A DNA stretch of 64,000 nucleotides. Origin: a virus. The translations under genes and the position numbers were made by a program. The notes under the pieces are model-generated. The model saw only the letters and a list, made by a program, of their open reading frames with translations. It did no database searches and was not told the DNA's origin. Positions 8,942-21,402 of this stretch are shown piece after piece (the first letter of the stretch is position 1; each line of letters opens with the position of its first letter). Where the stretch lies: positions 101,979 to 165,978 of the IMG/VR virus record IMGVR_UViG_3300045988_120991, one strand, 5' to 3'.

Positions 8942-9718
8942 TTATAGTTCATCGTCTTCTTCTGCAAGCTTCTTCTTAATAGCTTTAATTGCAACTTGTA
9001 CATCTGGACGAGTAATGTTCTCCTCCATCCAGACCACATAATCGTCACCAGATTTGAATAGGTCAATCAGCTTCTCGCCCTTATGCTTACCAAATGTTAG
9101 CACATACTCTTCTGGCTTAGATTCTACTCTAGGAGTTTCAATGTTCTCAAAATCCATAGTAAGAGTTTTGCGAGATGCAAGGTAGTCTGCAAGATGTACT
9201 AGCTCTTGATATGTGTCTTCTGGTTTCGGCAAACATTCTCCGGTTTTTCTATCCACATTCCATTGGCCCATATGCGATTCAATACAATGAGCAATTAGTT
9301 CAATCTCATCGTGATTTAGATACTTGCCATCATAACTACGAATAACTGCTGCCATTTGTAGAGGGTGGTCGAATTTAGTATACTTACTTCTTTCATAATC
9401 TGATTGGGACCCACTCTTACGGCCATCATGAATCAGTCCTGCCACACGTAGCAAGTCTCTTTCTCTACTAGGAATTATTTTGTTGTATTGTTCAAGTTCA
9501 AGAAAGAAATTTAGGAATCTTACAACTGCAATCTGATGACACATCAATCCAAGTTCTCCAAGTGAATAGGCCGGATGGTACTTTCCAGTAGACGATGCTC
9601 CAACATGCCATATATATTCTGGAAGGTTGTCTAATAACACAATTGCAAAATCTTTAATATCATCATTTTCAAATGTATTTAGTACTGGTTGTACTATATT
9701 TAGTCTTTCAGGCGTCAT
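8942..9718 (-). CDS. HD-domain phosphohydrolase with C-terminal DUF3820-like tail
   Basis: 258 aa with KYHPAYS...CHQ...LIHDGRK...HCIESH (H..HD..H). The C-terminal FGKHKGEKLIDL...YVVWM motif is seen in phage/ExoX-like tails. Confidence 0.7.
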   Translation of the reverse strand: MTPERLNIVQPVLNTFENDDIKDFAIVLLDNLPEYIWHVGASSTGKYHPAYSLGELGLMCHQIAVVRFLNFFLELEQYNKIIPSRERDLLRVAGLIHDGRKSGSQSDYERSKYTKFDHPLQMAAVIRSYDGKYLNHDEIELIAHCIESHMGQWNVDRKTGECLPKPEDTYQELVHLADYLASRKTLTMDFENIETPRVESKPEEYVLTFGKHKGEKLIDLFKSGDDYVVWMEENITRPDVQVAIKAIKKKLAEEDDEL

Positions 9719-9719
9719 A

Positions 9720-9968
9720 TTAGTCCTCCGTAGTGTAATACTCTAGTTCATCAAACATATTCGATAGGGTGATGACAGCATCTCTGCTATGATTATGTAC
9801 CGCATTAGTTGGGTTTTCATCTTCATAGTTCTCTACAAACCACATGATATTACTTAGTACAGTCTTTGCAAAATCAATAACCTCTACCACATCGTCTGCC
9901 TGGACATTCATAATACCGTTTTCTGAAATGTTATTACACACATTGAATAGGTCATTAAAAGTCTTCAT
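9720..9968 (-). CDS. hypothetical protein
   Basis: ORF track, 82 aa. Confidence 0.5.
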   Translation of the reverse strand: MKTFNDLFNVCNNISENGIMNVQADDVVEVIDFAKTVLSNIMWFVENYEDENPTNAVHNHSRDAVITLSNMFDELEYYTTED

Positions 9969-10132
9969 TCGTCATCCTCCTTAATATCATCTACAAGCTT
10001 TTCAATCTTTCCACAACAGGCACATGCTTCCATATAAGGTGTAAACACAATTCTGTCAATATTCTTCTTTGATAATTTGTGTTTCTTTAGGAAACATTTC
10101 CGGCAATAAATTCCATAATCAGTCTCGTTCAT
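9965..10132 (-). CDS. small zinc-ribbon-like protein (55 aa)
   Basis: Hand-translated MNETDYGIYCRKCF...ACACCGK. ATGA overlap with the next gene. Confidence 0.4.
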   Translation of the reverse strand: MNETDYGIYCRKCFLKKHKLSKKNIDRIVFTPYMEACACCGKIEKLVDDIKEDDE

Positions 10133-10147
10133 TTCTTTAATCCTTTC

Positions 10148-10555
10148 TTAATCAAATGTCTCTTGAATATATCCATTATCCGTTGTATAGTTAATCTTTT
10201 TAATGCCAAGGCTCTTGATAAGTTTTTGACATCCAGGACATGGTTTGCTCAATGCTTTGGTGCCGTTTTTCCACTCTCTATATATGTAAATCTGTACATC
10301 TTTCCAGTTGATATCTTTTCGATTCATAAGTGGTAAAAGAGCAGACGTTTCTGCGTGAAGAAAATGATTTGTATCTCCGTCAAAACGTTCTTTATTAAGT
10401 TCTTTTTGAAGGGGGTGGCTTTTTTTGATGTTACAAGCACTTGAAATAACTCTGTGCTTATATATCACGGCGCAACCTATATGATGCTTTTCAAAGTCGC
10501 TTAATTCAGAAACGGCTTTTGCCACATTAAAATATGTTCTATCCTTTTTTGTCAT
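10148..10555 (-). CDS. deoxycytidylate (dCMP) deaminase
   Basis: 135 aa with HAETSAL and PCPGCQKLI (the HAE...PCxxC zinc site of the cytidine/dCMP deaminase fold). Confidence 0.8.
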   Translation of the reverse strand: MTKKDRTYFNVAKAVSELSDFEKHHIGCAVIYKHRVISSACNIKKSHPLQKELNKERFDGDTNHFLHAETSALLPLMNRKDINWKDVQIYIYREWKNGTKALSKPCPGCQKLIKSLGIKKINYTTDNGYIQETFD

Positions 10556-10572
10556 AAATTAATTTTGTACTG

Positions 10573-11079
10573 TTAATCCTTTTTAATAATTGCCCACACA
10601 TCATTATACGTAACACTTTTACTTAGTGCTTCATCGTGTGTCTTAACCAAAACATCAATATGATTGCCGTTTACGGCACCACCTCTATCTTGAGCCGTTC
10701 TATATCCAATTCCATCAATATAAACTTTTGTGCCATATGGGATTACACTTGGATCAACTGCAATTGTTGTTCCAACATCTGTAGGTACTCCAGATGCGGT
10801 TACTCCAGACCCTCCACAAATATGATCTCTTCTTTCATCACAATAGTACGTAATTTTATATGATCCGAGATACATAAATTCAACACCAGGAGATTTCAGG
10901 TCCTCAATTTCTTGCTTCAATCGAGAATTTTCATCATCCTTTACAGAAATCACTTCGTTCAATCCATCAATAGAACTACTCATCATAGAGATTTCGTTAT
11001 TTTTCAAATGGATTGTCATTACAAGCAAAACAATCACCGTAGCCAAAATAAGATAAGATATGTATTTCTTTCTAATCAT
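10573..11079 (-). CDS. 3D-domain protein with N-terminal membrane anchor (cell-wall associated, MltA/YabE-like)
   Basis: N-terminal TM segment and a coiled coil. C-terminal GVTASG...IAVDPSVIPYGTKVYIDG...DRGGAVNGNHIDV is typical of a 3D domain. Confidence 0.7.
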   Translation of the reverse strand: MIRKKYISYLILATVIVLLVMTIHLKNNEISMMSSSIDGLNEVISVKDDENSRLKQEIEDLKSPGVEFMYLGSYKITYYCDERRDHICGGSGVTASGVPTDVGTTIAVDPSVIPYGTKVYIDGIGYRTAQDRGGAVNGNHIDVLVKTHDEALSKSVTYNDVWAIIKKD

Positions 11080-11097
11080 TCTTAATGTCCTTCCTAA

Positions 11098-11142
11098 ATT
11101 AATTTTGTACTGTAATTATAACAGATATTTTCTATTTGTCAA
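11098..11142 (-). promoter_or_regulatory. sigma-70-type promoter plus conserved leader
   Basis: Minus strand reads TTGACA-N16-TATAAT-t-ACAGTACAAAATTAA. The -35 overlaps the stop codon of the upstream gene. Confidence 0.65.
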
Positions 11143-12263
11143 GATGTTCTTAACCTTTCAATAAGTTTTTTTAGAATTTTAGCAATGTCAGAAATATCAT
11201 GCTGATTCAATGTTTCGTCCAATGTAATACGAATCGTGCTTAAAGCTTCTGCATCTGTAAGTCCAATAGCTTTTAACGTGCTACTTGGCACAGTCTCCCC
11301 ACTACTACAAGCAGAACCCGCAGAGATATAAATCCCACACATACTTGCTAGAGTCACAAGGTCACTAGCTTTTACTCCATCAATACGAACAGAAATATTA
11401 TTGCACAGACGATTAGTATCAAGTTCTGGACCATTTAGATGTACTCCAGGAATTTCAAGAATTTTCTTTGCAAGTTCATCCCTATTAAATCTAGTACAAA
11501 TGTTTGTATAGTCGTGTAACGTTCCTCTATTAATCTCTAGTGCTTTACCCATAGCTGCTATTGCAGGAGTATTTTCAGTTCCTCCTCGTTTGTGTAATTC
11601 TTGACTTCCATAAATAATCGGTGATAAATCAATTGTATCTTTGCAGTATAAAAATCCTGCACCTCTTCCACCTCTAAACTTCTGTGCTGAAATACTCATC
11701 ATATCTATTCTAAGCTTATCAACATCAATTCTTGATTCAGGGAAATATTGAACGGCATCCACATGTAATATACAATTATATTTATGCGTAATATATGAAA
11801 TAGATTTAATATCTTGGAGTGTTCCAATTTCAGAGTTTGCATACTGAATACTAACAATAGAATTATTATGTTCTTTTATTGTATCTTCTAAAATATTTGC
11901 ATCAATATTTCCAAATTCATCTACTGGAATATAATGTACATTAGTAAATTTATGATGATTTAAAATTTCACTAATAGATTTATGCTCTAATTGTGTCGTT
12001 ATAATAGTGTCAAAATTTGTTCCACAAAGTGCTAAAGTGTTTGCCTCTACTCCACCACTTGTGAAAATTATTTCTTTAGGTTCACAATTAATGTCTGCTG
12101 CAATTTGATCTCTTACATTTTCAATTATATTTTTAGCATCTTGCCCCATCTCATGAGTCGAAGATGGGTTGCCATAATGATTATACATTACATCGGCAAC
12201 CACATCTACAACTTCTTTGTATGGTTGAGTAGTAGATGCGCAATCTAAAAAGTATTTCTTCAT
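11139..12263 (-). CDS. cysteine desulfurase / class V aminotransferase (NifS/IscS-like)
   Basis: 374 aa. PLP-lysine context is SAQKFRGGRGAGFLY (compare SGHKxxGPKGxGxLY). C-terminal active-site loop is SAGSACSSG. Confidence 0.8.
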   Translation of the reverse strand: MKKYFLDCASTTQPYKEVVDVVADVMYNHYGNPSSTHEMGQDAKNIIENVRDQIAADINCEPKEIIFTSGGVEANTLALCGTNFDTIITTQLEHKSISEILNHHKFTNVHYIPVDEFGNIDANILEDTIKEHNNSIVSIQYANSEIGTLQDIKSISYITHKYNCILHVDAVQYFPESRIDVDKLRIDMMSISAQKFRGGRGAGFLYCKDTIDLSPIIYGSQELHKRGGTENTPAIAAMGKALEINRGTLHDYTNICTRFNRDELAKKILEIPGVHLNGPELDTNRLCNNISVRIDGVKASDLVTLASMCGIYISAGSACSSGETVPSSTLKAIGLTDAEALSTIRITLDETLNQHDISDIAKILKKLIERLRTS

Positions 12264-12266
12264 TGT

Positions 12267-12710
12267 CTACTCCTCAAATTCAATTTTCTCCTGGTGCCCA
12301 TTACGAACCTCTGTGTACAGATACTTACTAGCAGCATAATCATTGTGAAAGTGCGCCCACTTATAAGCATCAAACATTGAATCGAAATCTACATCGTATC
12401 CGTAATAAATTGTATAGAAAGATGTGTCGTCTCTATATCTTCCAATCATTACAAGTACATTATCCTCGTTCTGCAAAACGTTTCCAAGATACTTATGTGG
12501 GATTTCATAGATATTGTTAAGAACATCCTCCACAATATCATAATCTACTGTAGTAACATTCTTTGTGATAAGAACTGTATTATTGTTACATTTGCAAACT
12601 GCATGGTAATACTTTAACCCCTTTATCTTATTCTCTGTGAACTCAGCAGATACTACCTCAAGCATTGCCCCTGAAACATCATATAATGTGCTCATGTCTA
12701 ACCTCCTCAA
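12267..12710 (-). CDS. hypothetical protein
   Basis: ORF track, 147 aa, directly behind a consensus promoter. Confidence 0.6.
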   Translation of the reverse strand: MRRLDMSTLYDVSGAMLEVVSAEFTENKIKGLKYYHAVCKCNNNTVLITKNVTTVDYDIVEDVLNNIYEIPHKYLGNVLQNEDNVLVMIGRYRDDTSFYTIYYGYDVDFDSMFDAYKWAHFHNDYAASKYLYTEVRNGHQEKIEFEE

Positions 12711-12754
12711 TTAATTTTGTATTATAATTATAACGCAAATTTCTCATTTGTCAA
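12711..12754 (-). promoter_or_regulatory. sigma-70-type promoter plus conserved leader variant
   Basis: Minus strand reads TTGACA-N16-TATAAT-TATAATACAAAATTAATTGAGGAGG. Confidence 0.6.
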
Positions 12755-12763
12755 GTGCATTTT

Positions 12764-12793
12764 AGAAAAATAGCCACCTTTTTACAGGCGGCT
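12764..12793 (-). terminator. rho-independent terminator after glyA
   Basis: Minus strand reads AGCCGCC-TGTAAAA-AGGTGGCT followed by ATTTTTCT. Confidence 0.65.
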
Positions 12794-12799
12794 TATTTT

Positions 12800-14038
12800 T
12801 TACATATAAATTGGATGTAGTTCGCATAGTTGACGAGCTATATCGGAGATATATTTCTTATTGCCATCGAAGTCTTTGATGGCCAACGAAATAAGTCCCG
12901 CCACATTTCTTGCGTCAAACTTATCAAAGCCACGTGTAGTAATTGCGGGAGTCCCAATACGAAGACCACTAGTTACAAATGTGGATAGAGGGTCGTTAGG
13001 AATTGAATTTTTATTCGTTGTAATGTTTACACTATCGAGCTTCTCCTGTAATTCTTTGCCAGTAATTCCTGTGTCTCTAAGGTCTAGAATCATTAGATGA
13101 TTATCTGTTCCACCAGAAATAAGCTTAATGCCGTTTGTTTTAAATACACTTGCCATAGCCTTTGCATTATTAATAACATTATTCTGATATTCTGCAAATT
13201 CTGTCTTCAGTGCTTCACCAAAACATACTGCCTTTGCTGCAATTATATGTTCTAGTGGACCGCCCTGAGTACCAGGAAATACTGCCGAATCAATCTTCTT
13301 TGCAAGTTTACTCTTGCACAAAATAACTGCACCACGAGGGCCTCTCATGGATTTATGAGTCGTAAATGTGCAAACATCAGCATAAGGGACAGGACTTGGA
13401 TGTACACCTCCTGCTACAAGTCCAGCAATATGCGCCATGTCTACAAAGAGATAAGCGCCTACTTCATCTGCAATTTCACGGAACTTTGCAAAATCAATGA
13501 TACGCGGATATGCAGAAGCTCCTGCCAAAATCATCTTAGGCTTGTTATTTAGTGCAAGGTCCCTCACATTATCATAGTCAATAAAGCCATTTTCGCCTAC
13601 TCCATAACGAACTACGTTAAAGTACTTGCCAGAAATGTTGAATGGTGCTCCGTGACTGAGATGCCCACCAGCAGAAAGATCCATGGACAGAACGGTATCA
13701 CCAGGGGATAATAGTGCATAAAATACTGCCAAATTTGCGCTTGCTCCTGAATGCGGCTGCACGTTTGCATGTTCTGCTCCAAATAGCTTTTTACAACGTT
13801 CAATTGCAAGAAGTTCTACTTCATCAATATACTGACATCCACCATAGTATCTCGCATGAGGCTTTCCTTCTGCGTATTTATTGGTTAGAACAGATGACAT
13901 TGCGTCAAGAACTGCTGGAGACACAATGTTTTCTGATGCAATAAGTTCGATTGTACCACGCTGCCTGTTAAGTTCTTTCAAACAAATATCGTATACTTCT
14001 ACATCTTGCTTTTTTAGGTTGTCTAGCATTATATTCAC
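12800..14038 (-). CDS. glyA: serine hydroxymethyltransferase
   Basis: 412 aa. Family-wide similarity is evident, including [11 protein letters not shown] (PLP lysine), [10 protein letters not shown] and [10 protein letters not shown]. Confidence 0.9.
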
Positions 14039-14045
14039 TCCTTAC

Positions 14046-14074
14046 TTAAAAATAGGGGAGACTTTCGTCTCCCC
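14046..14074 (-). terminator. rho-independent terminator closing the tRNA array
   Basis: Minus strand reads GGGGAGAC-GAAA-GTCTCCCC followed by TATTTTTAAG, which runs into the glyA RBS. Confidence 0.75.
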
Positions 14075-14077
14075 TTA

Positions 14078-14153
14078 TGGAGCACGTGACGAGGCTTGAA
14101 CTCGCAACAGCCAGATTGGAAATCTGGAACTCTACCAATTGAGCTACACGTGC
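14078..14153 (-). tRNA. tRNA-Gly(UCC)
   Basis: Hand-folded cloverleaf: GCACGTG/CACGTGC acceptor, loop TTTCCAA, T-loop TTCAAGC, CCA encoded. Confidence 0.85.
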
Positions 14154-14158
14154 ATTTG

Positions 14159-14235
14159 TGGTACACCTTGAAGGACTCAAACCTTCGACCTTCTGATCCG
14201 TAGTCAGACGTTCTATTCAACTGAACTAAAGGTGC
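14159..14235 (-). tRNA. tRNA-Arg(ACG)
   Basis: Cloverleaf with TCTGA-CTACGGA-TCAGA anticodon arm, T-loop TTTGAGT, CCA encoded. Confidence 0.85.
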
Positions 14236-14240
14236 ATATA

Positions 14241-14315
14241 TGGTGCCCGTGGAGAGATTCGAACTCTCGACTCACGGCTTAAAAGGCCGTTACTCTACCA
14301 CTGAGTTACACGAGC
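14241..14315 (-). tRNA. tRNA-Lys(UUU)
   Basis: ACGGC-CTTTTAA-GCCGT anticodon arm, GAGAG-TTCGAAT-CTCTC T arm, CCA encoded. Confidence 0.9.
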
Positions 14316-14318
14316 ATA

Positions 14319-14395
14319 TGGTCGGAGTGCAGGGGCTTGAACCCTGGGCCTCTAGATCCCAAATCTAGCGCTCTACCAAACTGAGCTACACCCCG
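14319..14395 (-). tRNA. tRNA-Pro(UGG)
   Basis: CTAGA-TTTGGGA-TCTAG anticodon arm, CAGGG-TTCAAGC-CCCTG T arm, CCA encoded. Confidence 0.9.
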
Positions 14396-14400
14396 AAATG

Positions 14401-14477
14401 TGGCACCCCGTGTTGGACTCAAACCAACGACACATGGCTTAGAAGGCCATTGCTCTGTTCAACTGAGCTAACGGGGC
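14401..14477 (-). tRNA. tRNA-Arg(UCU)
   Basis: ATGGC-CTTCTAA-GCCAT anticodon arm, GTTGG-TTTGAGT-CCAAC T arm, CCA encoded. Confidence 0.9.
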
Positions 14478-14482
14478 ATATA

Positions 14483-14577
14483 TGGCGCCGAGGGTGGGAT
14501 TCGAACCCACGGGCCGAATATAAATCGGCACACAAGATTTCAAGTCTAGGCGCTTATGACCACTTGCGCACCTCGGC
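14483..14577 (-). tRNA. tRNA-Ser(UGA), class II
   Basis: Loop CTTGAAA, long variable arm GCCGA...TCGGC, GTGGG-TTCGAAT-CCCAC T arm, CCA encoded. One mismatch in the anticodon stem. Confidence 0.8.
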
Positions 14578-14690
14578 ATATTAACTTTGTAATCCCAAAC
14601 TCCTCCACACAGATTACTGGGCACCCCTTACCTCGAATGCTAGTTAGTAGCAACAAACGTTTGTGCCGTTTCCACAAATAAAGATACACC

Positions 14691-14885
14691 TCACTGCGTA
14701 TTAACCTCTGTATATTCAGTACTAGATAAGGTAATCATTCTTTCGCATCCGTCCTGTGGACAAAAAATATTTGCAACCCCAAGATTATTTATTCCGTCAG
14801 ACGGATTAAATGCAAATTCACAACCACAATAAGGGCAGATTGCCTTATAGGTCTTAACTTTGCCTCCCTTGATAATATACTTCAT
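14691..14885 (-). CDS. small zinc-ribbon protein embedded in the tRNA array
   Basis: 64 aa with CPYCGC...CPQDGC. GAGGTG RBS. Confidence 0.5.
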   Translation of the reverse strand: MKYIIKGGKVKTYKAICPYCGCEFAFNPSDGINNLGVANIFCPQDGCERMITLSSTEYTEVNTQ

Positions 14886-14896
14886 AATAACACCTC

Positions 14897-15016
14897 TTAA
14901 TTAAACTTGTTCAACTGCCGCTTAACTTTACGGATAAGGCCCTCGTTCATAGTCTCGCCTCGTGCCAAAAGCTTTGCTAGACGATTTTCATAATGTTCCT
15001 TAGTGCGAAAGTTCAT
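14897..15016 (-). CDS. small basic helical protein (39 aa) embedded in the tRNA array
   Basis: Hand-translated MNFRTKEHYENRLAKLLARGETMNEGLIRKVKRQLNKFN. Strong AGGAGG upstream. Confidence 0.35.
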   Translation of the reverse strand: MNFRTKEHYENRLAKLLARGETMNEGLIRKVKRQLNKFN

Positions 15017-15042
15017 AATATGTACCTCCTAAAATTTTTGTA

Positions 15043-15165
15043 TGGCAGGGGTAGTAGGGTTCGAACCTACGATGCGGGAGTCTGGTCAAGGTAGTTGGTA
15101 CTGCCCCAACTAAATTCACTTGAATACCTTGAAAGTCCCGTGCCTTACCACTTGGCTATACCCCT
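15043..15165 (-). tRNA. tRNA-Gln-like gene interrupted by a 49-nt insertion in the anticodon loop (UUG if CTTT+GAC are joined; UUC is the alternative)
   Basis: AGGGGTA/TACCCCT acceptor, GCC-AAGTGGTAA-GGC D arm, CGGGA...TCCCG anticodon stem enclosing 56 nt, GTAGG-TTCGAAC-CCTAC T arm, G73, CCA. Insertion at 15083-15131. Confidence 0.65.
15094..15110 (-). repeat. conserved insertion hairpin, copy 1 (GTTGG-GGCAGTA-CCAAC)
   Basis: The same 5-bp stem and 7-nt GGCAGNA loop recur in the insertions at 16662-16678 and 17532-17548. Confidence 0.7.
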
Positions 15166-15168
15166 ATA

Positions 15169-15243
15169 TGGTGGATCTGACGTGACTCGAACACGCAACT
15201 TCTTCCTTGCAAGGGAAGCTTTCTCCCATTGAAATACAGACCC
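15169..15243 (-). tRNA. tRNA-Cys(GCA)
   Basis: CTTCC-CTTGCAA-GGAAG anticodon arm, GCGTG-TTCGAGT-CACGT T arm, CCA encoded. Confidence 0.85.
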
Positions 15244-15405
15244 AGATTTTATGAGATAGCTACACTATGTATACCTAATGTAGCTATTAGGTTTTCTAAC
15301 TCCTCACCTCAAACCATTTTTATCTGTCTCTCCTCTTAGCCAATCAGATTTGAGTGACTTGAACGGACCGCCGTCCTCACATTGATAAAATAGTAAAATC
15401 AACAA
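15244..15405 (-). other. 162-nt non-coding spacer with strong hairpin inside the tRNA array
   Basis: Minus strand contains ATAGCTACA-N14-TGTAGCTAT (9-bp stem) and GGTTT...AAACC. I found no tRNA fold and no ORF. Confidence 0.3.
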
Positions 15406-15496
15406 TGGCGCGATAGGAAGGCTTCGAACCTTCGCACGGCTTTCACCGCCTAGCAGATTAGCAATCTACCCTCTTCAACCACTTGAGTACTACCGC
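15406..15496 (-). tRNA. tRNA-Ser(GCU), class II
   Basis: GTAGA-TTGCTAA-TCTGC anticodon arm, long variable arm GGCGGTGAAAGCCGT, CCA encoded. Confidence 0.85.
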
Positions 15497-15499
15497 ATA

Positions 15500-15703
15500 T
15501 TAATCTAATGTTCTTCCAGTTGCTAATTCAAAAATTAAATTATCAACACAGGGAATGTGCATTGCCTCTATCTCATATTGAGTACGATGTTCAATGTCAT
15601 TAATATAGATAGGACAATCTTTACATTCTACATTTTCACAAAAACGAACAGCTTTTTCTACTATTTTAGAATTCGCAAATTTTATATATTCTTCCCAACG
15701 CAT
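15500..15703 (-). CDS. small Cys-containing protein embedded in the tRNA array
   Basis: Start moved to MRWEEYIKF, with GGAGG 5 nt upstream. 67 aa. Confidence 0.5.
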   Translation of the reverse strand: MRWEEYIKFANSKIVEKAVRFCENVECKDCPIYINDIEHRTQYEIEAMHIPCVDNLIFELATGRTLD

Positions 15704-15723
15704 AAAATCCTCCATAAAACGAG

Positions 15724-15752
15724 CAGTTTATACAGTGATACTCAGCACTATC
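15724..15752 (-). repeat. 29-nt direct repeat, copy A (contains hairpin ATAGTG-N8-CACTGT)
   Basis: 25 of 29 nt identical to 16117-16145. Both copies sit just downstream (minus sense) of a tRNA 3' end. Confidence 0.6.
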
Positions 15753-15775
15753 CCACGGTCCCAATCGAGCTTTTC

Positions 15776-15850
15776 TGGAGCTGATGGAGAATTTCGAAAT
15801 CTCGACCTAGTGATTACAAATCACTCGCTCTGCCTCTGAGCTACACCAGC
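15776..15850 (-). tRNA. tRNA-Thr(UGU)
   Basis: AGTGA-TTTGTAA-TCACT anticodon arm, CCA encoded. One T-stem mismatch. Confidence 0.8.
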
Positions 15851-15956
15851 AGATCTCCTCGTCTTTCCGAGGTGTCAATCGCACTTTTACATTAATAATC
15901 TTAAATTATTCTTTAATAGGAAGATGACGCCAATCTTGTGTGATTACCTTTTATGT

Positions 15957-16025
15957 GAGGTCTTAATTGGAATCGAACCAACACCTGCCCCACCACGGGG
16001 CCGATCTACCATTGAACTATAAGAC
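15957..16025 (-). tRNA. atypical tRNA-like gene with a shortened (15-nt) anticodon arm; identity undetermined
   Basis: GGTCTTA/TAAGACC acceptor and GTTGG-TTCGATT-CCAAT T arm. The anticodon region is GCCCC-GTGGT-GGGGC (5-nt loop, or 4-bp stem with loop CGTGGTG). No CCA encoded. Confidence 0.4.
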
Positions 16026-16027
16026 CT

Positions 16028-16105
16028 ATGGTGACGCTACCGGGGATCGAACCCGGACACTCCACGGTGAAAGCGTGGTAACTCTACCAATTCGTCCATA
16101 GCGCC
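16028..16105 (-). tRNA. tRNA-Glu(UUC)
   Basis: CCACG-CTTTCAC-CGTGG anticodon arm, CCGGG-TTCGATC-CCCGG T arm, CCA encoded. Confidence 0.8.
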
Positions 16106-16116
16106 ATATCTTTGGA

Positions 16117-16145
16117 CAGTTTATACAGTGATGTCCAGCACTGTC
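16117..16145 (-). repeat. 29-nt direct repeat, copy B (hairpin ACAGTG-N8-CACTGT)
   Basis: See 15724-15752. Confidence 0.6.
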
Positions 16146-16156
16146 ACTTTTGGGAG

Positions 16157-16241
16157 TGGTAGCGGTGGTGGGCTACGATCCCACACGTCATAAGACATTG
16201 GTTTTTGAGACCAACCTGTCTGCCTGTTCCAGCACACCGCC
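16157..16241 (-). tRNA. tRNA-Leu(CAA), class II, atypical T-loop
   Basis: TTGGT-CTCAAAA-ACCAA anticodon arm, long variable arm. The T arm is GTGGG-ATCGTAG-CCCAC, with A where T54 normally sits. CCA encoded. Confidence 0.75.
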
Positions 16242-16448
16242 ATATTAAGCACAACCTACATAGAGCTAGCCTCGCTCACACTTGCTTTCCCGAACACTTC
16301 CCACCCTCGGTTATGCTTTGTTATTGTTTATCCTATTTTCACAATAACATATGCCTCGTTCTCTTCTCGTTACTATGGGTTAGTAACTTAGTAGCTTTTC
16401 TCTTGTGGATAGCACTTATCAATACACCGAGAACCCCAATAGGCGGCA
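16242..16448 (-). ncRNA. 207-nt structured non-coding spacer (candidate ncRNA)
   Basis: No credible ORF. Minus strand contains CTCGGT...ACCGAG enclosing about 110 nt, GTTACTA-ACCCA-TAGTAAC and GTTATTGT-N13-ACAATAAC hairpins. Confidence 0.3.
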
Positions 16449-16524
16449 TGGTTGCGAAGTTCTGGAATCGAACCAGATTCTGATAGCTTATGAGACTACC
16501 TGAGATTCCTACCTCCCACTCGCA
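16449..16524 (-). tRNA. tRNA with CAU anticodon (Met, or Ile2 if lysidine-modified)
   Basis: GTAGT-CTCATAA-GCTAT anticodon arm, TCTGG-TTCGATT-CCAGA T arm, CCA encoded. The acceptor has one mismatch. Confidence 0.7.
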
Positions 16525-16608
16525 TTATCTAGCAGACTACAATGCCGTCTGCTAGGGCATTAGAAAGAGGTGATGCCTATAACCAAGGCTCTGAACTTGT
16601 CATTCAGA

Positions 16609-16758
16609 TGGTCCCCCACCGGTGGATTGAACACCGAACCTCCCGATTATTTGTCACTACAGTAAGTCCTGCCCTTACATTACTGATTATCCTTCAGTGG
16701 TGTTGCTTTTACACTATGTAGTGAAGTCGGGTGCTCTAGCCAGTTGAGCTAGCAGGGG
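16609..16758 (-). tRNA. class I tRNA interrupted by an approx. 73-nt insertion in the anticodon loop (Ile-UAU-like if CTT+ATAA are joined; Arg-UCU or UCA readings also possible)
   Basis: CCCCTGC/GTGGGGG acceptor, GCTC-AACTGGCTA-GAGC D arm, CCCGA...TCGGG stem enclosing 80 nt, AGGTT variable loop, CGGTG-TTCAATC-CACCG T arm, A73, CCA. Confidence 0.6.
16662..16678 (-). repeat. conserved insertion hairpin, copy 2 (GTAAG-GGCAGGA-CTTAC)
   Basis: Shares stem ends and the GGCAGNA loop with copies 1 and 3. Confidence 0.7.
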
Positions 16759-17056
16759 ACATATAATCCGGCTTTTACGGTACGCCCAATAAGATGGACA
16801 CGCTTGAATTTCACAATTGCCATCAAAGTGCCTGATGACTAACACCCAATATGAAGCCTTGATATCATTGCTTCTAAGTCGTTATTGGGAACAACAGATG
16901 GTAATGATAGCAAGCGAAGCCGCGCATGACTCCATTTCACAGTGCTTCATCAACTACTTTTGGCATTTCTAATTATTATCGGTGCAGGTAGCTAATCCTG
17001 TAACGGCTTATCCTCATTGATTATCTCCTATGAAATTTGCACTACTTACTATCATT
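16759..17056 (-). ncRNA. 298-nt non-coding spacer (candidate structured RNA)
   Basis: No ORF above about 22 codons and no tRNA fold found by eye. Several 5-6-bp hairpins (e.g. CATCA-N7-TGATG). Confidence 0.25.
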
Positions 17057-17141
17057 TGGTGGGCCAGGGTGGTGCCGACCCACCTACTCCCGAAGGAAAC
17101 GGATTTACAGTCCGCCGCAGTTGCCGATTTGCTACTGACCC
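17057..17141 (-). tRNA. tRNA-Tyr(GUA), class II, atypical T-loop
   Basis: GCGGA-CTGTAAA-TCCGT anticodon arm, variable arm TTCCTTCGGGAGTA. The T arm is GGTGG-GTCGGCA-CCACC (G54/G58). CCA encoded. Confidence 0.75.
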
Positions 17142-17468
17142 ATATAGCTATACTTTTTAACTTGGGCAAGAAGTATAGTGAAACTTGCCAGACGATCAAA
17201 CCTTCATCCACATGGGAGCCACACGCAGTTCGTCCGTAGTATGTGGTTTTAATGTTTGAGTTGGTTCGCTACACCAACTCCGACTGACTTGCAATCGCAC
17301 TATTTTCTCTACAATTGGCCTTTGCACTACATTCGCACCCTAGTGCATTAACCTTCCTATATAGTGAACTTCCCTTTCATTTTCTGCTTCGAGAACCAAT
17401 CGCTTGTTCTCTACTCCAAGACTTTGGACGGGAGATGGGGCGGTAGTTTAATGACTTGCCAAGGTCGA
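17142..17468 (-). ncRNA. 327-nt structured non-coding element closed by a terminal helix (candidate large ncRNA)
   Basis: Minus-strand 5' CTTGGCAAG can pair with 3' CTTGCCCAAG. Internal hairpins are GAGAAC-N9-GTTCTC, GCACTA-N11-TAGTGC and GAGTTGG-N9-CCAACTC. No ORF. Confidence 0.35.
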
Positions 17469-17601
17469 TGGTGCGGGTAGCGAGACTTGAACTCGCACGG
17501 ATATTTCACCGAGGGATTTTTGGTGAGTATTGTAGGTGCTGCCCCTACCAAAGCACTGGCTATACCCAAGTCCCTTGTGTCTGCCATTCCACCATACCCG
17601 C
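17469..17601 (-). tRNA. tRNA-Leu (class II) interrupted by a 47-nt insertion in the anticodon loop (UAA if CTT+AAAA are joined)
   Basis: GCGGGTA/TACCCGC acceptor, Leu-type D arm GTG-GAATGGCAGA-CAC, AGGGA...TCCCT stem enclosing 54 nt, long variable arm, GCGAG-TTCAAGT-CTCGC T arm, A73, CCA. Confidence 0.65.
17532..17548 (-). repeat. conserved insertion hairpin, copy 3 (GTAGG-GGCAGCA-CCTAC)
   Basis: Shares stem ends and the GGCAGNA loop with copies 1 and 2. Confidence 0.7.
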
Positions 17602-17649
17602 ATATCACAGGGCAGCTTTAAGGTGATGCCCAGCACCATACTTAACTCC

Positions 17650-19203
17650 TTAAGAGTTCTTCAATGCGGCTTCCACCGCATCATATCTATCACTCATAAG
17701 CGTCTCAACGAGGCACTCATAAGGATTGGTCTTACCACTCATAACCATCTTGCAGACATTAGTGGAGAATCCACTAACAAGAGCAACACCAAGGTCATTC
17801 TCCTTTATAGGAATAGTTCCAGTGCGAGAATTTACATTCCAGAAGACTAGTCTAGGCATCTGATACCCAGCATCCTCGAAACGCTTCTTGATTACCTTAA
17901 AAAGTTTTGCATTAGGTCTATTAAGACCATATCTAGCGGAACCGTCACAAGTTGCACAAGAGTCAAACTCCATATCTGAAATAATCAGTACGTTCTTAGG
18001 CATATCCTCTTGCTTCATATGACCATTCACCGCAGTAGTAAGAATCAAATCAAACACCTTTTCAATGTTTGTATTTGAACACTCGTCATGACCATATGCA
18101 ACACGTAACTTATCTCTCAGAGAATCGCACTGACTAAAATCAACCAACTGAGGTCTGCTAGAGAAAGTAATGTATTTATCCTTAAAGTCTCCAGAAGAAT
18201 GTTCTGCAAAGTAAATCGCAAGTGCATTTGCAACTTCAAGTGCAGTAACACGGCTACTTCCACCAACGTTGCAACACATAGAACCAGAGCCATCTGCAAC
18301 TACAATGGTGTTTCCACATTCATTTACTGTGTTAGGCAAAGCTTTCCAAAGAGATTCAAGAGTTGCATCGTATTTGCCGATACCGCCGTACCATCCAGTT
18401 GCACTAGAATACTTATGCACAATGTCGTGAGGGAACAAAGTTCCAGCATTAATCTTAGTTTCGCCCTTTTCAAGCTTACTCAGATACTCTCTGCGACGCT
18501 CCTCATCATTACGAAGGAAAGCTCCGTTATAAATGAGATTTGCACGAGAAGGAACTGTTTCGTACTTAATGTCTCCCCATTTCTTTGCAGACATCTTGCC
18601 CTCTACAATATCAATGTAAGAACGCAGAGAAGAAAGTGTCTTACGATACTCACGCTCAGTCATACCAAGATTCTTGCAAATGTATCTTGCATCCATCTTA
18701 GTTTTTGCAGAAGAAGCATTCACAGAAGGAAGCCACTTGGCAAGAAGAGATACGGGCTTATTATCAGCCATATTTGCAATATCATCAGTGAGCTGCTTTT
18801 TGATGATGTCAAAAATAATACCATCTACGTCTGTACCAAACAGACACCACAGGTCATCATAACGACCATACTCACTCACCAGAGGAGCAAGATGCTTAAC
18901 AATATCAACGTCATCCTTTGCCATATTCTTAATAATCGCTCTGAACAAACGTCTTTCACCAAGACCACCACGAACATCTCTGGCGAAGAACAGCCAACGT
19001 AGAGCCATCATTTTATCTTCAAAATAAGCCTTAGTAAACTTATTATAGATATTCTCCTCACTCATACCACGCATAGAAGAAACTGCAAAGTTTAGGTCAA
19101 CCAGTTCCTTACCAGAGGTACGATACCCAAGAGCGCCATTCTCAGTTACTGAATAGTTGAAATCCTCGTTCAGAGTATTCTTTACTGCATTCATAAAAGA
19201 CAT
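17650..19203 (-). CDS. Ro60/TROVE-like vWA protein (DUF2828-type architecture)
   Basis: Start moved to MSFMNAVKN, with GGAGG upstream. N-terminal VTENGALGYRTSGKELVDLNF. C-terminal vWA domain with MIDAS VADGSGSM, and a tail FWNVNSRTGTIPI...VSGFS that parallels the Ro60 C-terminus. Confidence 0.65.
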   Translation of the reverse strand: MSFMNAVKNTLNEDFNYSVTENGALGYRTSGKELVDLNFAVSSMRGMSEENIYNKFTKAYFEDKMMALRWLFFARDVRGGLGERRLFRAIIKNMAKDDVDIVKHLAPLVSEYGRYDDLWCLFGTDVDGIIFDIIKKQLTDDIANMADNKPVSLLAKWLPSVNASSAKTKMDARYICKNLGMTEREYRKTLSSLRSYIDIVEGKMSAKKWGDIKYETVPSRANLIYNGAFLRNDEERRREYLSKLEKGETKINAGTLFPHDIVHKYSSATGWYGGIGKYDATLESLWKALPNTVNECGNTIVVADGSGSMCCNVGGSSRVTALEVANALAIYFAEHSSGDFKDKYITFSSRPQLVDFSQCDSLRDKLRVAYGHDECSNTNIEKVFDLILTTAVNGHMKQEDMPKNVLIISDMEFDSCATCDGSARYGLNRPNAKLFKVIKKRFEDAGYQMPRLVFWNVNSRTGTIPIKENDLGVALVSGFSTNVCKMVMSGKTNPYECLVETLMSDRYDAVEAALKNS

Positions 19204-19239
19204 TTTCTTTCCTCCATTTTTTTGATTTATTTCTAAATC

Positions 19240-19442
19240 CCAAGACACATTATTATGTACAATCTCCACATTAAAAATTTGCTGTTAGTGTCTTTGGAGT
19301 TTATTCAACGAGACGCCAAAATAAAACCATTAGTAAAAATATCATTTTCATCTTTTTAAATTGCTGTAAGCGTCTCTATGTAAGGCAAGGCACCATCAAT
19401 ATAAATCCATATCATATTATGTAAAGTTGCTGTTAGTGCCTT
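19240..19442 (-). repeat. three tandem imperfect hairpin units, each carrying a CTAACAGCAA-N-TTT box, in the leader of the Ro-like gene
   Basis: Minus-strand stems are AAGGCAC/GTGCCTT, GAGACGC/GCGTCTC and CCAAAGACAC/GTGTCTTGG. Each is followed on its 5' arm by (C)T(A/T)ACAGCAA-N-TTT. A fourth box lies inside the tRNA-Asn insertion. Confidence 0.6.
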
Positions 19443-19448
19443 TTTAAA

Positions 19449-19567
19449 GTCTCCTGACAGGACTTGAACCTGCGACCTCTGGTTTAACAGACCAATTAGA
19501 AACTTGCTGTTTAAGGCTTTTACAAGTCTCGTTATTAAGCGCTCTATCCGACTGAGCTACAGGAGAC
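19449..19567 (-). tRNA. tRNA-Asn(GUU)-like gene with a 44-nt insertion at the top of the anticodon stem; encoded G-1 opposite C73; no CCA
   Basis: Removing 19495-19538 gives TCTCCTG-TA-GCTC-AGTCGGATA-GAGC-G-CTGGT-CTGTTAA-ACCAG-AGGTC-GCAGG-TTCAAGT-CCTGT-CAGGAGA-C, a canonical cloverleaf. Confidence 0.6.
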
Positions 19568-19604
19568 ATATTTATGAGCAGTTTAACGAGGTGCTCGGCT
19601 CACT

Positions 19605-19649
19605 TTAATTTTGTACTGTGATTATACCACAGATTACTTATTTTGTCAA
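19605..19649 (-). promoter_or_regulatory. sigma-70-type promoter plus conserved leader, driving the tRNA-Asn-like / Ro-like unit
   Basis: Minus strand reads TTGACA-N17-TATAAT-c-ACAGTACAAAATTAA, with a TGTGG extended -10 context. Confidence 0.7.
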
Positions 19650-19763
19650 GTACTTTTTTACTTTTTATTCCAGAGAAGCCATCCACAAGCAACTCCGAAC
19701 AAGAAACATACAATTTCCTTCATCTTTACTTCTTCCTTATTATACCATATTCGGCATCATTTG

Positions 19764-20114
19764 TCAAGCATTTTCTCGATTTTTTCTTGTGCAATTTACT
19801 CGATTGCAGAACTCAAACATTGCTGCATTAAGATCCTCTGCAAACTCATCACACTTGGTATCCAGTGCTGCATAGTACCGATCCAGAAGCTTCGCCTTTG
19901 CCATCTTCATACCAATAGCAGGATCATACTCATCATCAGGATGACACACGACAACCGCACGATAAGAACTACTCATCAGGTACTTACTAGGATCGAAGCA
20001 CAGAGATTTGGTCTGTCCCATAATCTTTGCAATCTTATGGATAGCATCATACTTCGTGTTCTCAAGAACCGCAATGGTCTTGTTCTGCTCCGGCACATGT
20101 ACAAACTTAATCAT
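19764..20114 (-). CDS. hypothetical protein
   Basis: ORF track, 116 aa, behind two tandem consensus promoters. Confidence 0.6.
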   Translation of the reverse strand: MIKFVHVPEQNKTIAVLENTKYDAIHKIAKIMGQTKSLCFDPSKYLMSSSYRAVVVCHPDDEYDPAIGMKMAKAKLLDRYYAALDTKCDEFAEDLNAAMFEFCNRVNCTRKNRENA

Positions 20115-20134
20115 TTTTGTTATCCTTTCTTGTT

Positions 20135-20179
20135 TTAATTTTGTATTGTGATTATAACATGCTTTCTTGAACTTGTCAA
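20135..20179 (-). promoter_or_regulatory. sigma-70-type promoter plus conserved leader
   Basis: Minus strand reads TTGACA-N17-TATAAT-c-ACAATACAAAATTAA. Confidence 0.65.
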
Positions 20180-20228
20180 GCCCTTTTTAACCATCCCGGT
20201 AAAGGTTCTTGCCTCATTCATTGTTTGT

Positions 20229-20257
20229 ATTATAGCGCATTAATTTTGTTTTGTCAA
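20229..20257 (-). promoter_or_regulatory. second, upstream sigma-70-type promoter
   Basis: Minus strand reads TTGACA-N17-TATAAT. The -35 overlaps the stop codon of the preceding gene. Confidence 0.55.
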
Positions 20258-21402
20258 GTATCTTTTTTAAATAATTTTCTAGTTTCTTCATAAGACAGGT
20301 ACTTAATATTAATGCCCGTCAAATTCAGCAGTTTTTCATTTTTAAACTCGTTAACATGAGTTACTGCAAGAGATACCTCATAGGCAATATCCCCAATGTC
20401 TTCCTTAATTCTTTGCATAAGCTCACCAACATCAAGATGCCCATACCGAATGGACCCCTGATACTGGTTTGTAATATTGGTCTTGTCATCAATGTTAATG
20501 TTAATCTCCGACTTATCACATTCACATTCAAAGTCACCAGCACCATGCTTCGTCATATATGTTCTAGTAACATAGCACACTTCAACGTTTGCATTAGGTA
20601 AATACTTTTCAATGATTATATGAGGATTTGCAATGCCAGTATTGCTAGGAGTCGTATTATCATAATACTGAACATGACGCTGATCCAACAGCAATCCTTG
20701 CCCATTTTCAAATACGACATTATCAAACTTTTGCAAAATCCTACTATAATCAAATACTACATGAGAATGCATAAACTGCGCATCGTCAATAAAGTTATAA
20801 ATCAAATTGTCGGATGCCAAAATATCTTCCCATTCCTGCAAAACTTCAGGACTAGCCTTTAGCAGCCTCTTAGACGTATATTCATCCCTGACACGCTTAA
20901 GAAATGCGACCTGCTCGTCCTTAGTCATATTATAGAACTGCTGGAAAGACGGGCTTGTAGTATTCCTATATCTAAGAACAGTTTCCCAAATACCCATACC
21001 ACAAGAGCCATACCGATTTTTGCCACGACTATCCTCAAGGATTTGATTTGTAATCATATCATATGGAGTAGACCATCTGCAATTCCAATGACTATAAACA
21101 CGAGGTGCATAGCCTAATGCCTTCAATTCCTCGTACTCTTTTCTAAAAGTCATAGGGTTTAGAATATACTCTTCCCCAAAATAAGTATCTGCTCCCGCAA
21201 AGGTTCCTGAACCAAAATGGTGGAACACATGTCTAATGCCATCTGGAGTAACTACAGTATGTCCTCTTTGTGCGCCGCCATTGCATAGAGCAACGATACA
21301 AGATTCATTCCGCTTACTTGCTTCGGCACAAAAGTAATCGGTCATCAGACCTTTTCCCTCGTCGCCAAAGTTGCTACCAATTACTACCTTAACATTAGAC
21401 AT
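20254..21402 (-). CDS. adenylosuccinate synthetase family protein (short form; PurA/PurZ-like)
   Basis: Start moved to MSNVKVVIGSNFGDEGKGLMTDYF (AdSS P-loop GDEGKG). Also NGGAQRGHTV (compare GGHNAGHT), FENGQGLLLD and TRTYMTKHGAGDF (compare TRVGxGPF). Confidence 0.7.
   Translation of the reverse strand: MSNVKVVIGSNFGDEGKGLMTDYFCAEASKRNESCIVALCNGGAQRGHTVVTPDGIRHVFHHFGSGTFAGADTYFGEEYILNPMTFRKEYEELKALGYAPRVYSHWNCRWSTPYDMITNQILEDSRGKNRYGSCGMGIWETVLRYRNTTSPSFQQFYNMTKDEQVAFLKRVRDEYTSKRLLKASPEVLQEWEDILASDNLIYNFIDDAQFMHSHVVFDYSRILQKFDNVVFENGQGLLLDQRHVQYYDNTTPSNTGIANPHIIIEKYLPNANVEVCYVTRTYMTKHGAGDFECECDKSEININIDDKTNITNQYQGSIRYGHLDVGELMQRIKEDIGDIAYEVSLAVTHVNEFKNEKLLNLTGINIKYLSYEETRKLFKKDT

Follow-up and report, generated by a model that had tools for sequence, protein, structure and literature searches.

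How a transfer RNA (tRNA) gene can keep its function when its anticodon loop is interrupted is currently answered in two ways, as tRNA introns are divided between the self-splicing group I introns of bacteria, organelles and phages and the protein-spliced bulge-helix-bulge (BHB) introns of archaea and eukaryotes. A locus of the IMG/VR virus record IMGVR_UViG_3300045988_120991 raises the question of whether a tRNA can also be split by an element shaped like another tRNA, and how such an element would be removed. This locus is found at 16609-16758 on the minus strand of the window, i.e., the whole stretch of 64,000 nucleotides (nt) analysed here (positions 101,979 to 165,978 of the record), and is held in a minus-strand array of at least 18 tRNA genes (14078-19567). 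Taken as one statement, the evidence leans somewhat towards a tRNA-Ile(UAU) gene split by a tRNA-derived insert that would be excised by RNase P together with a second nuclease, followed by ligation of the exons. The anatomy of the gene and its Ile(UAU) identity are proposed with high confidence.

The interrupted gene, its anticodon and its exons

Read on the minus strand from 16758 to 16609, the locus is CCCCTGC TA GCTC AACTGGCTA GAGC A CCCGA (80 nt) TCGGG AGGTT CGGTG TTCAATC CACCG GTGGGGG A CCA, with the following parts:

16609-16758 (-): whole interrupted gene, predicted precursor of tRNA-Ile(UAU), 150 nt including the encoded CCA, from reading of the sequence and ARAGORN -i
16724-16758 (-): 5' exon, 35 nt, with the 5' strand of the acceptor stem, the D arm, the 5' strand of the anticodon stem and C32, U33 and U34
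16651-16723 (-): insert (intron), 73 nt, a degenerate tRNA-like cloverleaf in its minimum free energy (MFE) fold
16609-16650 (-): 3' exon, 42 nt, with A35, U36, A37 and A38, the 3' strand of the anticodon stem, the variable loop, the T arm, the 3' strand of the acceptor stem, A73 and CCA

The original prediction for this DNA, made from its letters alone, described an interrupted tRNA with an insertion of about 73 nt in the anticodon loop, and this description is borne out. The anticodon stem encloses exactly 80 nt, equal to a loop of 7 nt plus an insert of 73 nt; when searching for introns, ARAGORN places the gene at c[16609,16758] and gives it an intron of 73 nt; and all eight exon joins giving a 7-nt loop result in a 77-nt tRNA call by the same program. 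Each of the cloverleaf elements listed there (acceptor stem, D arm, CCCGA/TCGGG, T arm, A73 and CCA) is present on the minus strand, the quoted strings being the reverse complement of the window. The outer gene shows the features of a tRNA of the Rfam family RF00005, namely a 7-bp acceptor stem (with two G-U pairs), a D arm with GG, a TTCRA T loop, U33, and a discriminator followed by CCA. As it stands unspliced, the locus is not reported by default ARAGORN, which runs no intron search, nor by Rfam at the gathering score on the window or at E<=1 on 13500-20500.

Regarding the anticodon, the comparison below indicates that the gene is a tRNA-Ile(UAU) with the loop CUUAUAA, reading AUA, and that the insert sits between U34 and A35, i.e., between CUU and AUAA. 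The predicted spliced junction joins ...ACCCGACUU to AUAAUCGGG...; the 25-mer GAGCACCCGACUUAUAAUCGGGAGG, which only splicing would make, was not found in the viral-contig collection. Ile-UAU had been preferred from the start, with UCU and UCA left open as not excludable from the sequence alone; that remaining choice is now closed in favour of UAU by comparison with related phages. For this, 65 related IMG/VR loci, mostly on contigs of 90-170 kb, were gathered through the gene of a DUF2828 protein located inside the array (L-numbers, such as L001, label the related viral loci or contigs compared). In the orthologous genes, which form three exon sets, 11 unique insert variants are all placed between CTT and ATAA. 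Most Ile inserts start with C, for which a join one base later would read UCU, and those of L074 and L085 start with T, for which the same join would read UUU; thus, only the CTT+ATAA join gives one anticodon everywhere. In L005 and L006, the orthologous gene (5' exon about 91% identical) bears a different insert at 36/37, leaving CTTAT+AA. Moreover, L171 and L172 carry an insert-free allele that matches the interrupted L072-type genes without a difference, its 77 nt agreeing with their exons and its flanks with theirs, and ARAGORN calls this allele as tRNA-Ile(tat) with the loop CTTATAA. The spliced tRNA is also identical to uninterrupted Ile(UAU) genes at 61/79, 60/81 and 65/77 positions, versus 50/80 for the tRNA-Arg(UCU) of the window.

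Two other anticodons were rejected. An Arg-UCU reading conflicts with the UUU that T-initial inserts would give and with the UAU read in empty-site alleles, and a tRNA-Arg(UCU) already exists at 14401-14477. A UCA anticodon, reading UGA, cannot be given by the type-B insert and disagrees with the same empty-site alleles; it is also unlikely because TGA is an ordinary stop in the window, ending 19 of the 74 open reading frames (ORFs), where standard-code ORFs are dense. The spliced tRNA has A73, C4-G69, U12-A23, C29-G41, A37 and A38, which we take to be the identity elements of E. coli tRNA-Ile, defined for the isoleucyl-tRNA synthetase (IleRS) of E. coli and supportive only in this phage tRNA. 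These elements were reportedly established by Nureki et al. in 1994.

It had also been expected that AUA is a frequent codon in this genome, which is not supported, as ATA amounts to only 152 codons in the 74 minus-strand ORFs (9.3 per 1000, and 13% of Ile codons). Such low usage is in keeping with a dead gene, in which a tRNA-derived mobile or recombined element would sit unspliced in the anticodon of tRNA-Ile and leave no working tRNA. The same reading would accommodate an inner tail decayed to ACAA, an inner anticodon loop without U33, a locus unrecognised by Rfam and default ARAGORN, and inserts that are gained and lost between close relatives as mobile elements are. However, the exons do not behave as those of a dead gene. 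The 5' exon is identical in L001-L004 and L012 (35/35), as is the 3' exon at 42/42 or 41/42 positions, and between the window and L001 the exons match at 77/77 where the inserts have diverged to 51/76, or 34/59 outside the T arm that they share. The three orthologous exon sets, all of which carry inserts, show compensatory substitutions in the acceptor, anticodon and T stems, and all four stems of the outer tRNAs are kept by compensatory changes. In addition, the insert occurs in the same gene in 26 viral contigs, and no other AUA-reading tRNA was found in the window by ARAGORN, with or without intron search. Because the exons remain identical while the inserts diverge, and because the outer stems covary, the outer gene is best described as a putatively functional tRNA with a fast-evolving or exchangeable insert and not as a pseudogene, and a dead gene is considered very unlikely.

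A tRNA-shaped insert and its family

The shape of the insert had escaped the first reading. At minimum free energy, the insert folds into a cloverleaf of tRNA dimensions (-17.3 kcal/mol, 49% of the ensemble), a topology seen in only 1 of 2000 dinucleotide-preserving shuffles of the insert. It begins with a 7-bp helix, followed after 2 nt by a stem of 4 bp, after 1 nt more by one of 5 bp and, 3 nt further on, by another of 5 bp, all three with loops of 7 nt; the last of these stems directly abuts the 3' strand of the helix, behind which comes the 4-nt tail ACAA:

16717-16723 (-): inner acceptor-like helix, 5' strand CACTACA, beginning at nt 1 of the insert
16700-16714 (-): inner D-like arm GTGT-AAAAGCA-ACAC, in the MFE fold
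16682-16698 (-): inner anticodon-like arm ACTGA-AGGATAA-TCAGT, degenerate, its loop lacking U33
16662-16678 (-): inner T-arm-like hairpin GTAAG-GGCAGGA-CTTAC, abutting the 3' strand of the helix
16655-16661 (-): inner acceptor-like helix, 3' strand TGTAGTG, from the MFE fold and compensatory changes
16651-16654 (-): inner discriminator and CCA-like tail ACAA, with the 3' junction directly after it

What had been noticed earlier was a pairing of the anticodon side with the 3' end of the insertion, TCACTACA/TGTAGTGA. This pairing is real, forming an 8-bp helix in the MFE fold of the precursor, and it is the acceptor stem of the inner element plus a possible U34-A73 pair. Among the 11 orthologous inserts, the acceptor-like helix shows compensatory changes at six of its seven pairs, and the D stem is retained in the alifold consensus with one compensatory pair. 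At the position of the anticodon-like arm, orthologous inserts have different hairpins (CTTAA/TTAAG, CTAAA/TTTAG), the arm being absent from the consensus fold; since the MFE folds of these inserts are not all cloverleaves, the inner D and anticodon arms are not claimed as selected. The element departs from a standard tRNA in its T loop (GGCAGGA), its anticodon-like loop (AGGATAA, without U33) and its tail (CAA). Therefore, "tRNA-like" or "tRNA-derived" is the right label, on account of its tRNA dimensions and its homology to inserts ending in GCCA, such as that of its nearest variant, L076, which has the same acceptor helix and a GCCA tail.

Three features were sought in the 65 loci: GGCAG hairpins, introns called by ARAGORN, and canonical tRNAs that leave another tRNA behind when they are taken out. 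With the addition of a search for the 17-nt T arm, 33 unique inserts of one design were obtained, and at least one is found in 22 of the 65 anchored loci. As judged by these comparisons, the insert belongs to a tRNA-in-tRNA family present in a clade of phage contigs of roughly 150-170 kb. In the 27 inserts first compared, nt 1-7 form a helix with nt -11 to -5 (7/7 pairs, or 6/7 for the Leu inserts with a GGCAG loop), and a 5-bp stem (5/5) with a 7-nt loop lies directly before the 3' strand of the helix in every one. Thus, the 12-bp coaxial acceptor and T stem expected of an RNase P minihelix (7 + 5 bp with a 7-nt loop) is found in the window insert and in all 27. The exon base preceding the insert is U in 26 of the 27. 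Regarding the RCCA that RNase P would look for after the helix, the tail is NCCA in 24 of the 27 and ACAA in three independent lineages, the window copy among them. When the 35-nt minihelices are aligned, 98.6% of the cells pair, versus 58% in shuffled alignments and 38-46% with the partner strand slid, and 11 of the 12 pairs have changes on both sides, although these statistics overstate independence because the set was chosen partly by the helix rule, with the T stem being no criterion in the ARAGORN-derived subset.

The exact 17-mer of the T arm (GTAAG-GGCAGGA-CTTAC) is present in 26 viral contigs, always inside Ile inserts. A search for it in 185,579 genomes, aimed at a prophage or host, gave 20 matches, all by chance and without the helix or CCA context. 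In its general form, N5-GGCAGNA-N5', the hairpin occurs three times in the 64-kb window, once for each of the interrupted Ile, Gln and Leu tRNAs:

15043-15165 (-): sibling tRNA-Gln(UUG) with a minihelix insert of 49 nt at 35/36 (15083-15131), which ends in ACCA; Rfam tRNA hit of 120 nt
17469-17601 (-): sibling tRNA-Leu(UAA) with a minihelix insert of 47 nt at 34/35 (17521-17567), which ends in ACCA; Rfam hit

The Gln insert follows CTTT and reads CAAGGTA ... GTTGG-GGCAGTA-CCAAC TACCTTG ACCA before GAC, with a compensatory change in L005 (CAGGGTA/TACCCTG). The Leu insert follows CTT and reads GGGTATA ... GTAGG-GGCAGCA-CCTAC AATACTC ACCA before AAAA; L005 has an uninterrupted Leu(UAA) allele with the loop cttaaaa. 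These two genes account for two of the three over-long Rfam tRNA hits in the window, the third being a tRNA-Asn with an unrelated insert (19449-19566). As a separate observation, L005 also has a stand-alone, 77-nt, tRNA-shaped gene (12342-12418) with the loop CTCATGA (CAU), the T loop GGCAGAG and ACCA, which occupies the position of the tRNA-Met(CAT) of the window (16449-16524) and is not called by ARAGORN; consequently, GGCAG-type T loops are not confined to inserts. When the tRNA region was compared by megablast with 50,697 phage records, only two trivial tRNA matches were returned, and MT835469, the nearest GenBank phage by Pol III alpha, has four tRNAs, none of them interrupted.

The family ranges in size from 47 to 93 nt. 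One extreme of the series consists of inner elements that are tRNAs in their own right: a tRNA-Asn(GUU) nested inside tRNA-Lys(UUU) in L016-L018 and L020, a tRNA with the anticodon CUA inside Ile(UAU) in L005/L006, and a tRNA-like gene nested in tRNA-Lys in L008/L009, with Rfam scores of 57, 43.5 and 47.5 bits, respectively, for a gathering score of 29. At the far end are inserts of 47-50 nt with the helix, the hairpin and NCCA only. In the L005 and L006 cases (12170-12246 and 12179-12255, respectively), the insert is a canonical CUA tRNA and a potential amber suppressor, and TAG ends only 2 of the 74 ORFs in the window. In L016 (5989-6140; also in L017, L018 and L020), the outer Lys gene has a non-canonical T loop, AGCAAAG.

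Such sizes bear on the possibility that the insert splices or cleaves itself, being a small ribozyme or a group I-like intron in miniature. The bacterial and phage tRNA introns known so far are of group I, and the intron of the cyanobacterial tRNA-Leu(UAA) presumably lies at 34/35 as well. However, 47-93 nt is far below the size of a group I intron, no Rfam intron or ribozyme match was obtained (gathering score on the window; E<=1 on 13500-20500), and the conserved parts are a plain helix, a hairpin and NCCA, so that autocatalysis is regarded as barely credible here.

All of the interrupted genes are U34 tRNAs (33/33 inserts), namely Ile-UAU, Leu-UAA, Lys-UUU, Gln-UUG and Thr-UGU, and in 27 of the 33 the insert is found at 34/35, exactly 3' of U34. 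The 3' exon keeps two, three or four loop bases, varying among inserts. We take this U34/35 site to be the one cut by some anticodon nucleases (colicin E5, gamma-toxin) and also that of the classic group I intron of tRNA-Leu(UAA).

The nested tRNAs could also mean that the excised RNA is the point of the locus, the outer halves being by-products, or tRNA halves, that are not religated. The excised RNA might then act as a decoy for tRNA-targeting toxins or enzymes, or as the partner of a TROVE-like protein. The Asn-GUU and CUA elements of the relatives are full tRNAs and plausibly the wanted product, a gene for a DUF2828/DUF7788 "RNA-binding protein" lies inside the tRNA array, and the T arm GTAAG-GGCAGGA-CTTAC is invariant in the three Ile-insert variants recovered without it (L001, L002 and L012), the other seven having been retrieved with the 17-mer, so that their identity there is ascertainment. 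This explanation, however, leaves the purifying and compensatory selection on the outer exons unaccounted for, as well as the normal Ile(UAU) tRNA of insert-free alleles, and the reduced inserts of 47-50 nt keep the processing signals only. For these reasons, it is considered unlikely in comparison with an insert that is removed so that the outer tRNA can be rejoined.

Proposed excision of the insert and ligation of the exons

In the proposed route, RNase P would treat the insert as a pre-tRNA and cut at its position +1, which is the 5' splice site, leaving ...CUU-3'OH, and an endonuclease would cut directly 3' of the NCCA-like tail, which is the 3' splice site. The outer cloverleaf would hold the exon halves together while an RNA ligase seals the nick, a kinase/HD protein healing the ends if needed, and the product would be a tRNA with the loop CUUAUAA, reading AUA. 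Candidates for the last two enzymes are encoded in the window, along with two other genes of related interest, all within 16 kb of the locus:

6551-8029 (-): candidate sealing enzyme, an ATP-dependent RNA ligase of the DraRnl/Naegleria type (Rnl5-like; DRB0094); PHROG 968 "RNA ligase", 4e-62
5427-6302 (-): candidate end-healing enzyme, a fusion of polynucleotide kinase (AAA_33) and HD phosphohydrolase; Pfam AAA_33 at 2e-26, plus HD
2088-2636: metallophosphoesterase
963-1796: Thg1-like protein

The ligase ORF also matches TIGR02306 at 1e-13, below its cutoff, has weak matches to Pfam RNA_ligase and to the OB region of PHA02142, and finds the Naegleria RNA ligase as its nearest PDB entry (2e-3). 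Ligases of the DRB0094/Naegleria type join a 3'-OH to a 5'-phosphate. The kinase/HD ORF is further matched by a PHROG polynucleotide kinase and by the kinase region of Pnkp (TIGR04075). The splicing roles assigned to both proteins are putative.

As both junctions are fixed to the inner helix and variable relative to the outer anticodon stem, the insert itself seems to carry the processing signals. What is retained throughout the family appears to be what tRNA end-processing enzymes recognise, i.e., the 12-bp acceptor/T stack, the discriminator and CCA. In addition, a nested tRNA would be functional only if it were cut at +1 and exactly after CCA, which supports cuts at both ends of the insert; if the outer tRNA survives too, the second cut cannot lie further downstream with trimming back. 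RNase P prefers U at -1, a preference matched by the U34 that precedes the window insert; the stand-alone tRNAs of these phages have U at -1 in 226 of 287 cases and an encoded CCA in 249 of 287. Processing by RNase P plus a ligase is given a little under an even chance.

Several points weigh against this route. The ACAA tail of the window copy, which two other lineages share, should weaken the contact between RNase P and CCA. In the precursor fold, a pair between U34 and the inner A73 can lengthen the helix to 8 bp, and, as known from the processing of tRNA-His, such an extension could shift RNase P cleavage by one base. Among bacterial enzymes, none is known to us for which general cleavage exactly 3' of an encoded CCA has been shown, and the RNase Z of Bacillota, the guessed host phylum, is inhibited by CCA. 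The insert is not called a tRNA by ARAGORN, applied to the 73 nt, or by Rfam at E<=1, and when orthologous inserts are folded individually (MFE), the acceptor helix and T arm alone are robust, with no consistent prediction of the D and anticodon arms. Regarding the co-occurrence of ligase and inserts across contigs, the pattern-based search recovers only close relatives, with five contigs overlapping. RNA-repair genes are conventionally understood as a counter-defence against host anticodon nucleases (PMC7824862), so that those of the window permit the model but do not prove it. The processing, the ligation and the use of the product are all steps that we infer from sequence.

The end-healing genes could also fit with a dedicated splicing endonuclease of the phage or host, as yet unrecognised and either BHB-like or anticodon-nuclease-like, with no role for RNase P. 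Such an enzyme would leave a 2',3'-cyclic phosphate and a 5'-OH, to be healed by the kinase/HD protein and sealed by the ligase. The phage encodes a kinase and phosphoesterases beside its ligase, and these would be needed only for ends of that kind; the position of 27 of the 33 inserts, 34/35, is also one that some anticodon nucleases presumably cut. However, the folds show no BHB: the 5' junction is at the base of the helix of 7-8 bp and the 3' junction in a single strand of 7 nt, on the opposite side of the entire inner cloverleaf, and not in a pair of 3-nt bulges separated by 4 bp. A scan of 30 ORFs revealed no EndA-like domain, and a dedicated endonuclease would leave unexplained why the junctions are fixed to the inner helix rather than to the outer stem, why nested tRNAs obey the same rule and why the tail is NCCA. 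It is, therefore, considered quite unlikely.

BHB introns resemble the present inserts in being short, protein-dependent and located in or near the anticodon loop, with halves held by the tRNA body and joined by an RNA ligase. In them, the splicing endonuclease cuts the bulge-helix-bulge and ligation is carried out by RtcB or Trl1. The inserts described here differ in lacking a BHB, in their position at 34/35 instead of 37/38, and in residing in a phage of bacterial type, with Pol III alpha and DnaB; what is recognised appears to be the tRNA shape of the intron itself. Group I tRNA introns, such as that of tRNA-Leu(UAA), likewise interrupt the anticodon loop of bacterial-type tRNAs and are polymorphic for presence and absence, and the tRNA-Leu(UAA) intron presumably lies between U34 and A35, the site of the Leu insert of the window. 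They are, however, self-splicing ribozymes of at least 200 nt with a P3-P9 core, unlike these inserts of 47-93 nt with no Rfam intron match. tRNA-like signals that release neighbouring RNAs are known from the mitochondrial "tRNA punctuation", the mascRNA of MALAT1 and the dimeric tRNA precursors of phage T4. The logic proposed here is the same, in that RNase P and 3'-end enzymes recognise the tRNA fold and their cuts set the ends of the flanks, but in those systems the flanks are not rejoined, whereas here they are halves of another tRNA and would need ligation. The repair of T4 tRNA (PrrC versus Pnkp and Rnl1) and the kits of jumbo phages (PMC7824862) are similar in that a ligase, kinase and phosphatase seal a break in the anticodon loop, with a gene set like that of the window; they answer damage inflicted by the host, whereas here the break would be programmed in the phage's own genes.

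Full-text literature searches returned no paper describing an RNase P-dependent or tRNA-shaped intron family, the sole precedent being a remark on Lak megaphages. As described by Devoto et al. (2019, Nat Microbiol; PMC6784885), the tRNAs of these phages have "enigmatic" introns, and that of a tRNA-Thr(TGT) "itself may encode a tRNA"; the Lak genomes are credited there with a T4-type RNA ligase and a Thg1-like function, and no rule, family or mechanism was proposed. Both systems have inserts in the anticodon loop of phage tRNAs and insert-free alleles, and, in the sequences of their Table S6 (PMC6784885), a 7-bp helix with a T arm can be seen in the Tyr, Phe, Thr and Gly introns, within the 3' portion. 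Nevertheless, the Lak introns carry a 5' leader of 26-30 nt with its own hairpin, which the present clade lacks, and they end in CA, ACA or CTA instead of an NCCA tail. Because this leader precedes the tRNA-like part, a single RNase P cut would not free the Lak 5' exon cleanly. The series from full tRNA to minihelix belongs to the present clade, and the two represent variant architectures and not sequence relatives. The family is, consequently, a new variant of a barely described kind, to which it adds a clean rule, the full-tRNA-to-minihelix series and the empty-site alleles.

A family that conserves only the elements recognised by RNase P and by tRNA 3'-end enzymes would be a different solution from the two known classes of tRNA intron. 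More tentatively still, it could amount to a third route of tRNA splicing in bacterial viruses, with a tRNA or minihelix intron excised by end-maturation enzymes and rejoined by a phage RNA ligase, which is rated as possible but short of probable. If true, one transcript would yield two tRNAs, the phage ligase would be required for expression of the U34 tRNAs (Ile-UAU, Leu-UAA, Lys-UUU, Gln-UUG and Thr-UGU), and phage RNA ligases would gain a housekeeping role beyond the repair of host-inflicted damage. Bacterial-type tRNA genes nested in one another would be unexpected even to a specialist. If the inserts arose by RNA-level ligation of a mature tRNA into a break made by an anticodon nuclease, this could even account for their 34/35 hotspot and for boundaries that are precisely those of a mature tRNA. 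For annotation, the consequence is that standard tools miss or mislabel the interrupted genes, distorting phage tRNA repertoires and the arguments on codon usage built on them: since it assumes the canonical intron position, ARAGORN -i gives wrong anticodons, labelling the Ile gene as Arg-UCU, the Gln gene as Glu-UUC and the Leu gene as Pro-UGG.

The array and its surroundings

The window has 36% G+C and dense coding on the minus strand in the standard code, with phage-type genes for Pol III alpha, DnaB, RecJ, a GIY-YIG endonuclease and integrases. One of its proteins is present as an exact copy on a 166-kb contig from a human gut metagenome (ERR636364/PRJEB7369); the sequence of the phage itself is on a contig from that source. 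The host phylum may be guessed as Bacillota, from a Pol III similarity of 39% to Bacillus and Geobacillus phages.

Downstream of the array, the block 963-14038 (-), which includes the ligase and kinase/HD genes, also encodes a radical-SAM protein, an HD protein, a deaminase, a cysteine desulfurase of the NifS/IscS type and a serine hydroxymethyltransferase. As a speculation, the last two could feed U34 thiolation and xm5U synthesis, the inserts being found only in U34 tRNAs. In the middle of the array, 17650-19203 (-) encodes the DUF2828 + DUF7788 protein (PHROG 850 "RNA-binding protein"), which is conserved in 65/65 related loci and is possibly TROVE/Ro-like. Prompted by this neighbour, a Y-RNA/YrlA (the Ro/TROVE partner) was considered for the Ile locus and rejected: the Rfam matches are weak (E 0.18-0.53, far below gathering) and fall on ordinary tRNAs at 14101-14432 and not on the Ile locus, the RNA of which ends in a normal acceptor stem and CCA.

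The tRNA-Asn(GUU) at 19449-19566 (-) has a 44-nt insert, CTTAATAACGAGACTTGTAAAAGCCTTAAACAGCAAGTTTCTAA, placed between G26 and the anticodon stem and without the helix and NCCA design. Its motif, a hairpin arm followed by WACAGCAA, recurs in three further copies just downstream, outside tRNAs (intergenic, 19279-19434 (-)), and four of the seven WACAGCAA matches of the window fall within 233 nt. Across the related loci (most of the 65), short tRNA inserts are marked in dozens of cases by motifs of this type, which look like a second class of phage tRNA insert or a processing or regulatory motif.

Among the related contigs, L008 has at 12485-12580 (also in L009-L011, L029 and L054) an odd 96-nt "tRNA-Ile(tat)" call, TGCCCTCATAGTTTAATGGTAAAAC...; several inserts have a D-like arm matching its D arm, TA GTTT AATGGTA AAAC, and the gene may be a free-standing relative of the inserted elements. 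Finally, and with no link to the tRNA inserts found or looked for, the window has at 28240-29529 (-) and 42784-44712 (-) a GIY-YIG/NUMOD homing-endonuclease-like gene, located directly after RecJ, and two adjacent tyrosine recombinase genes.

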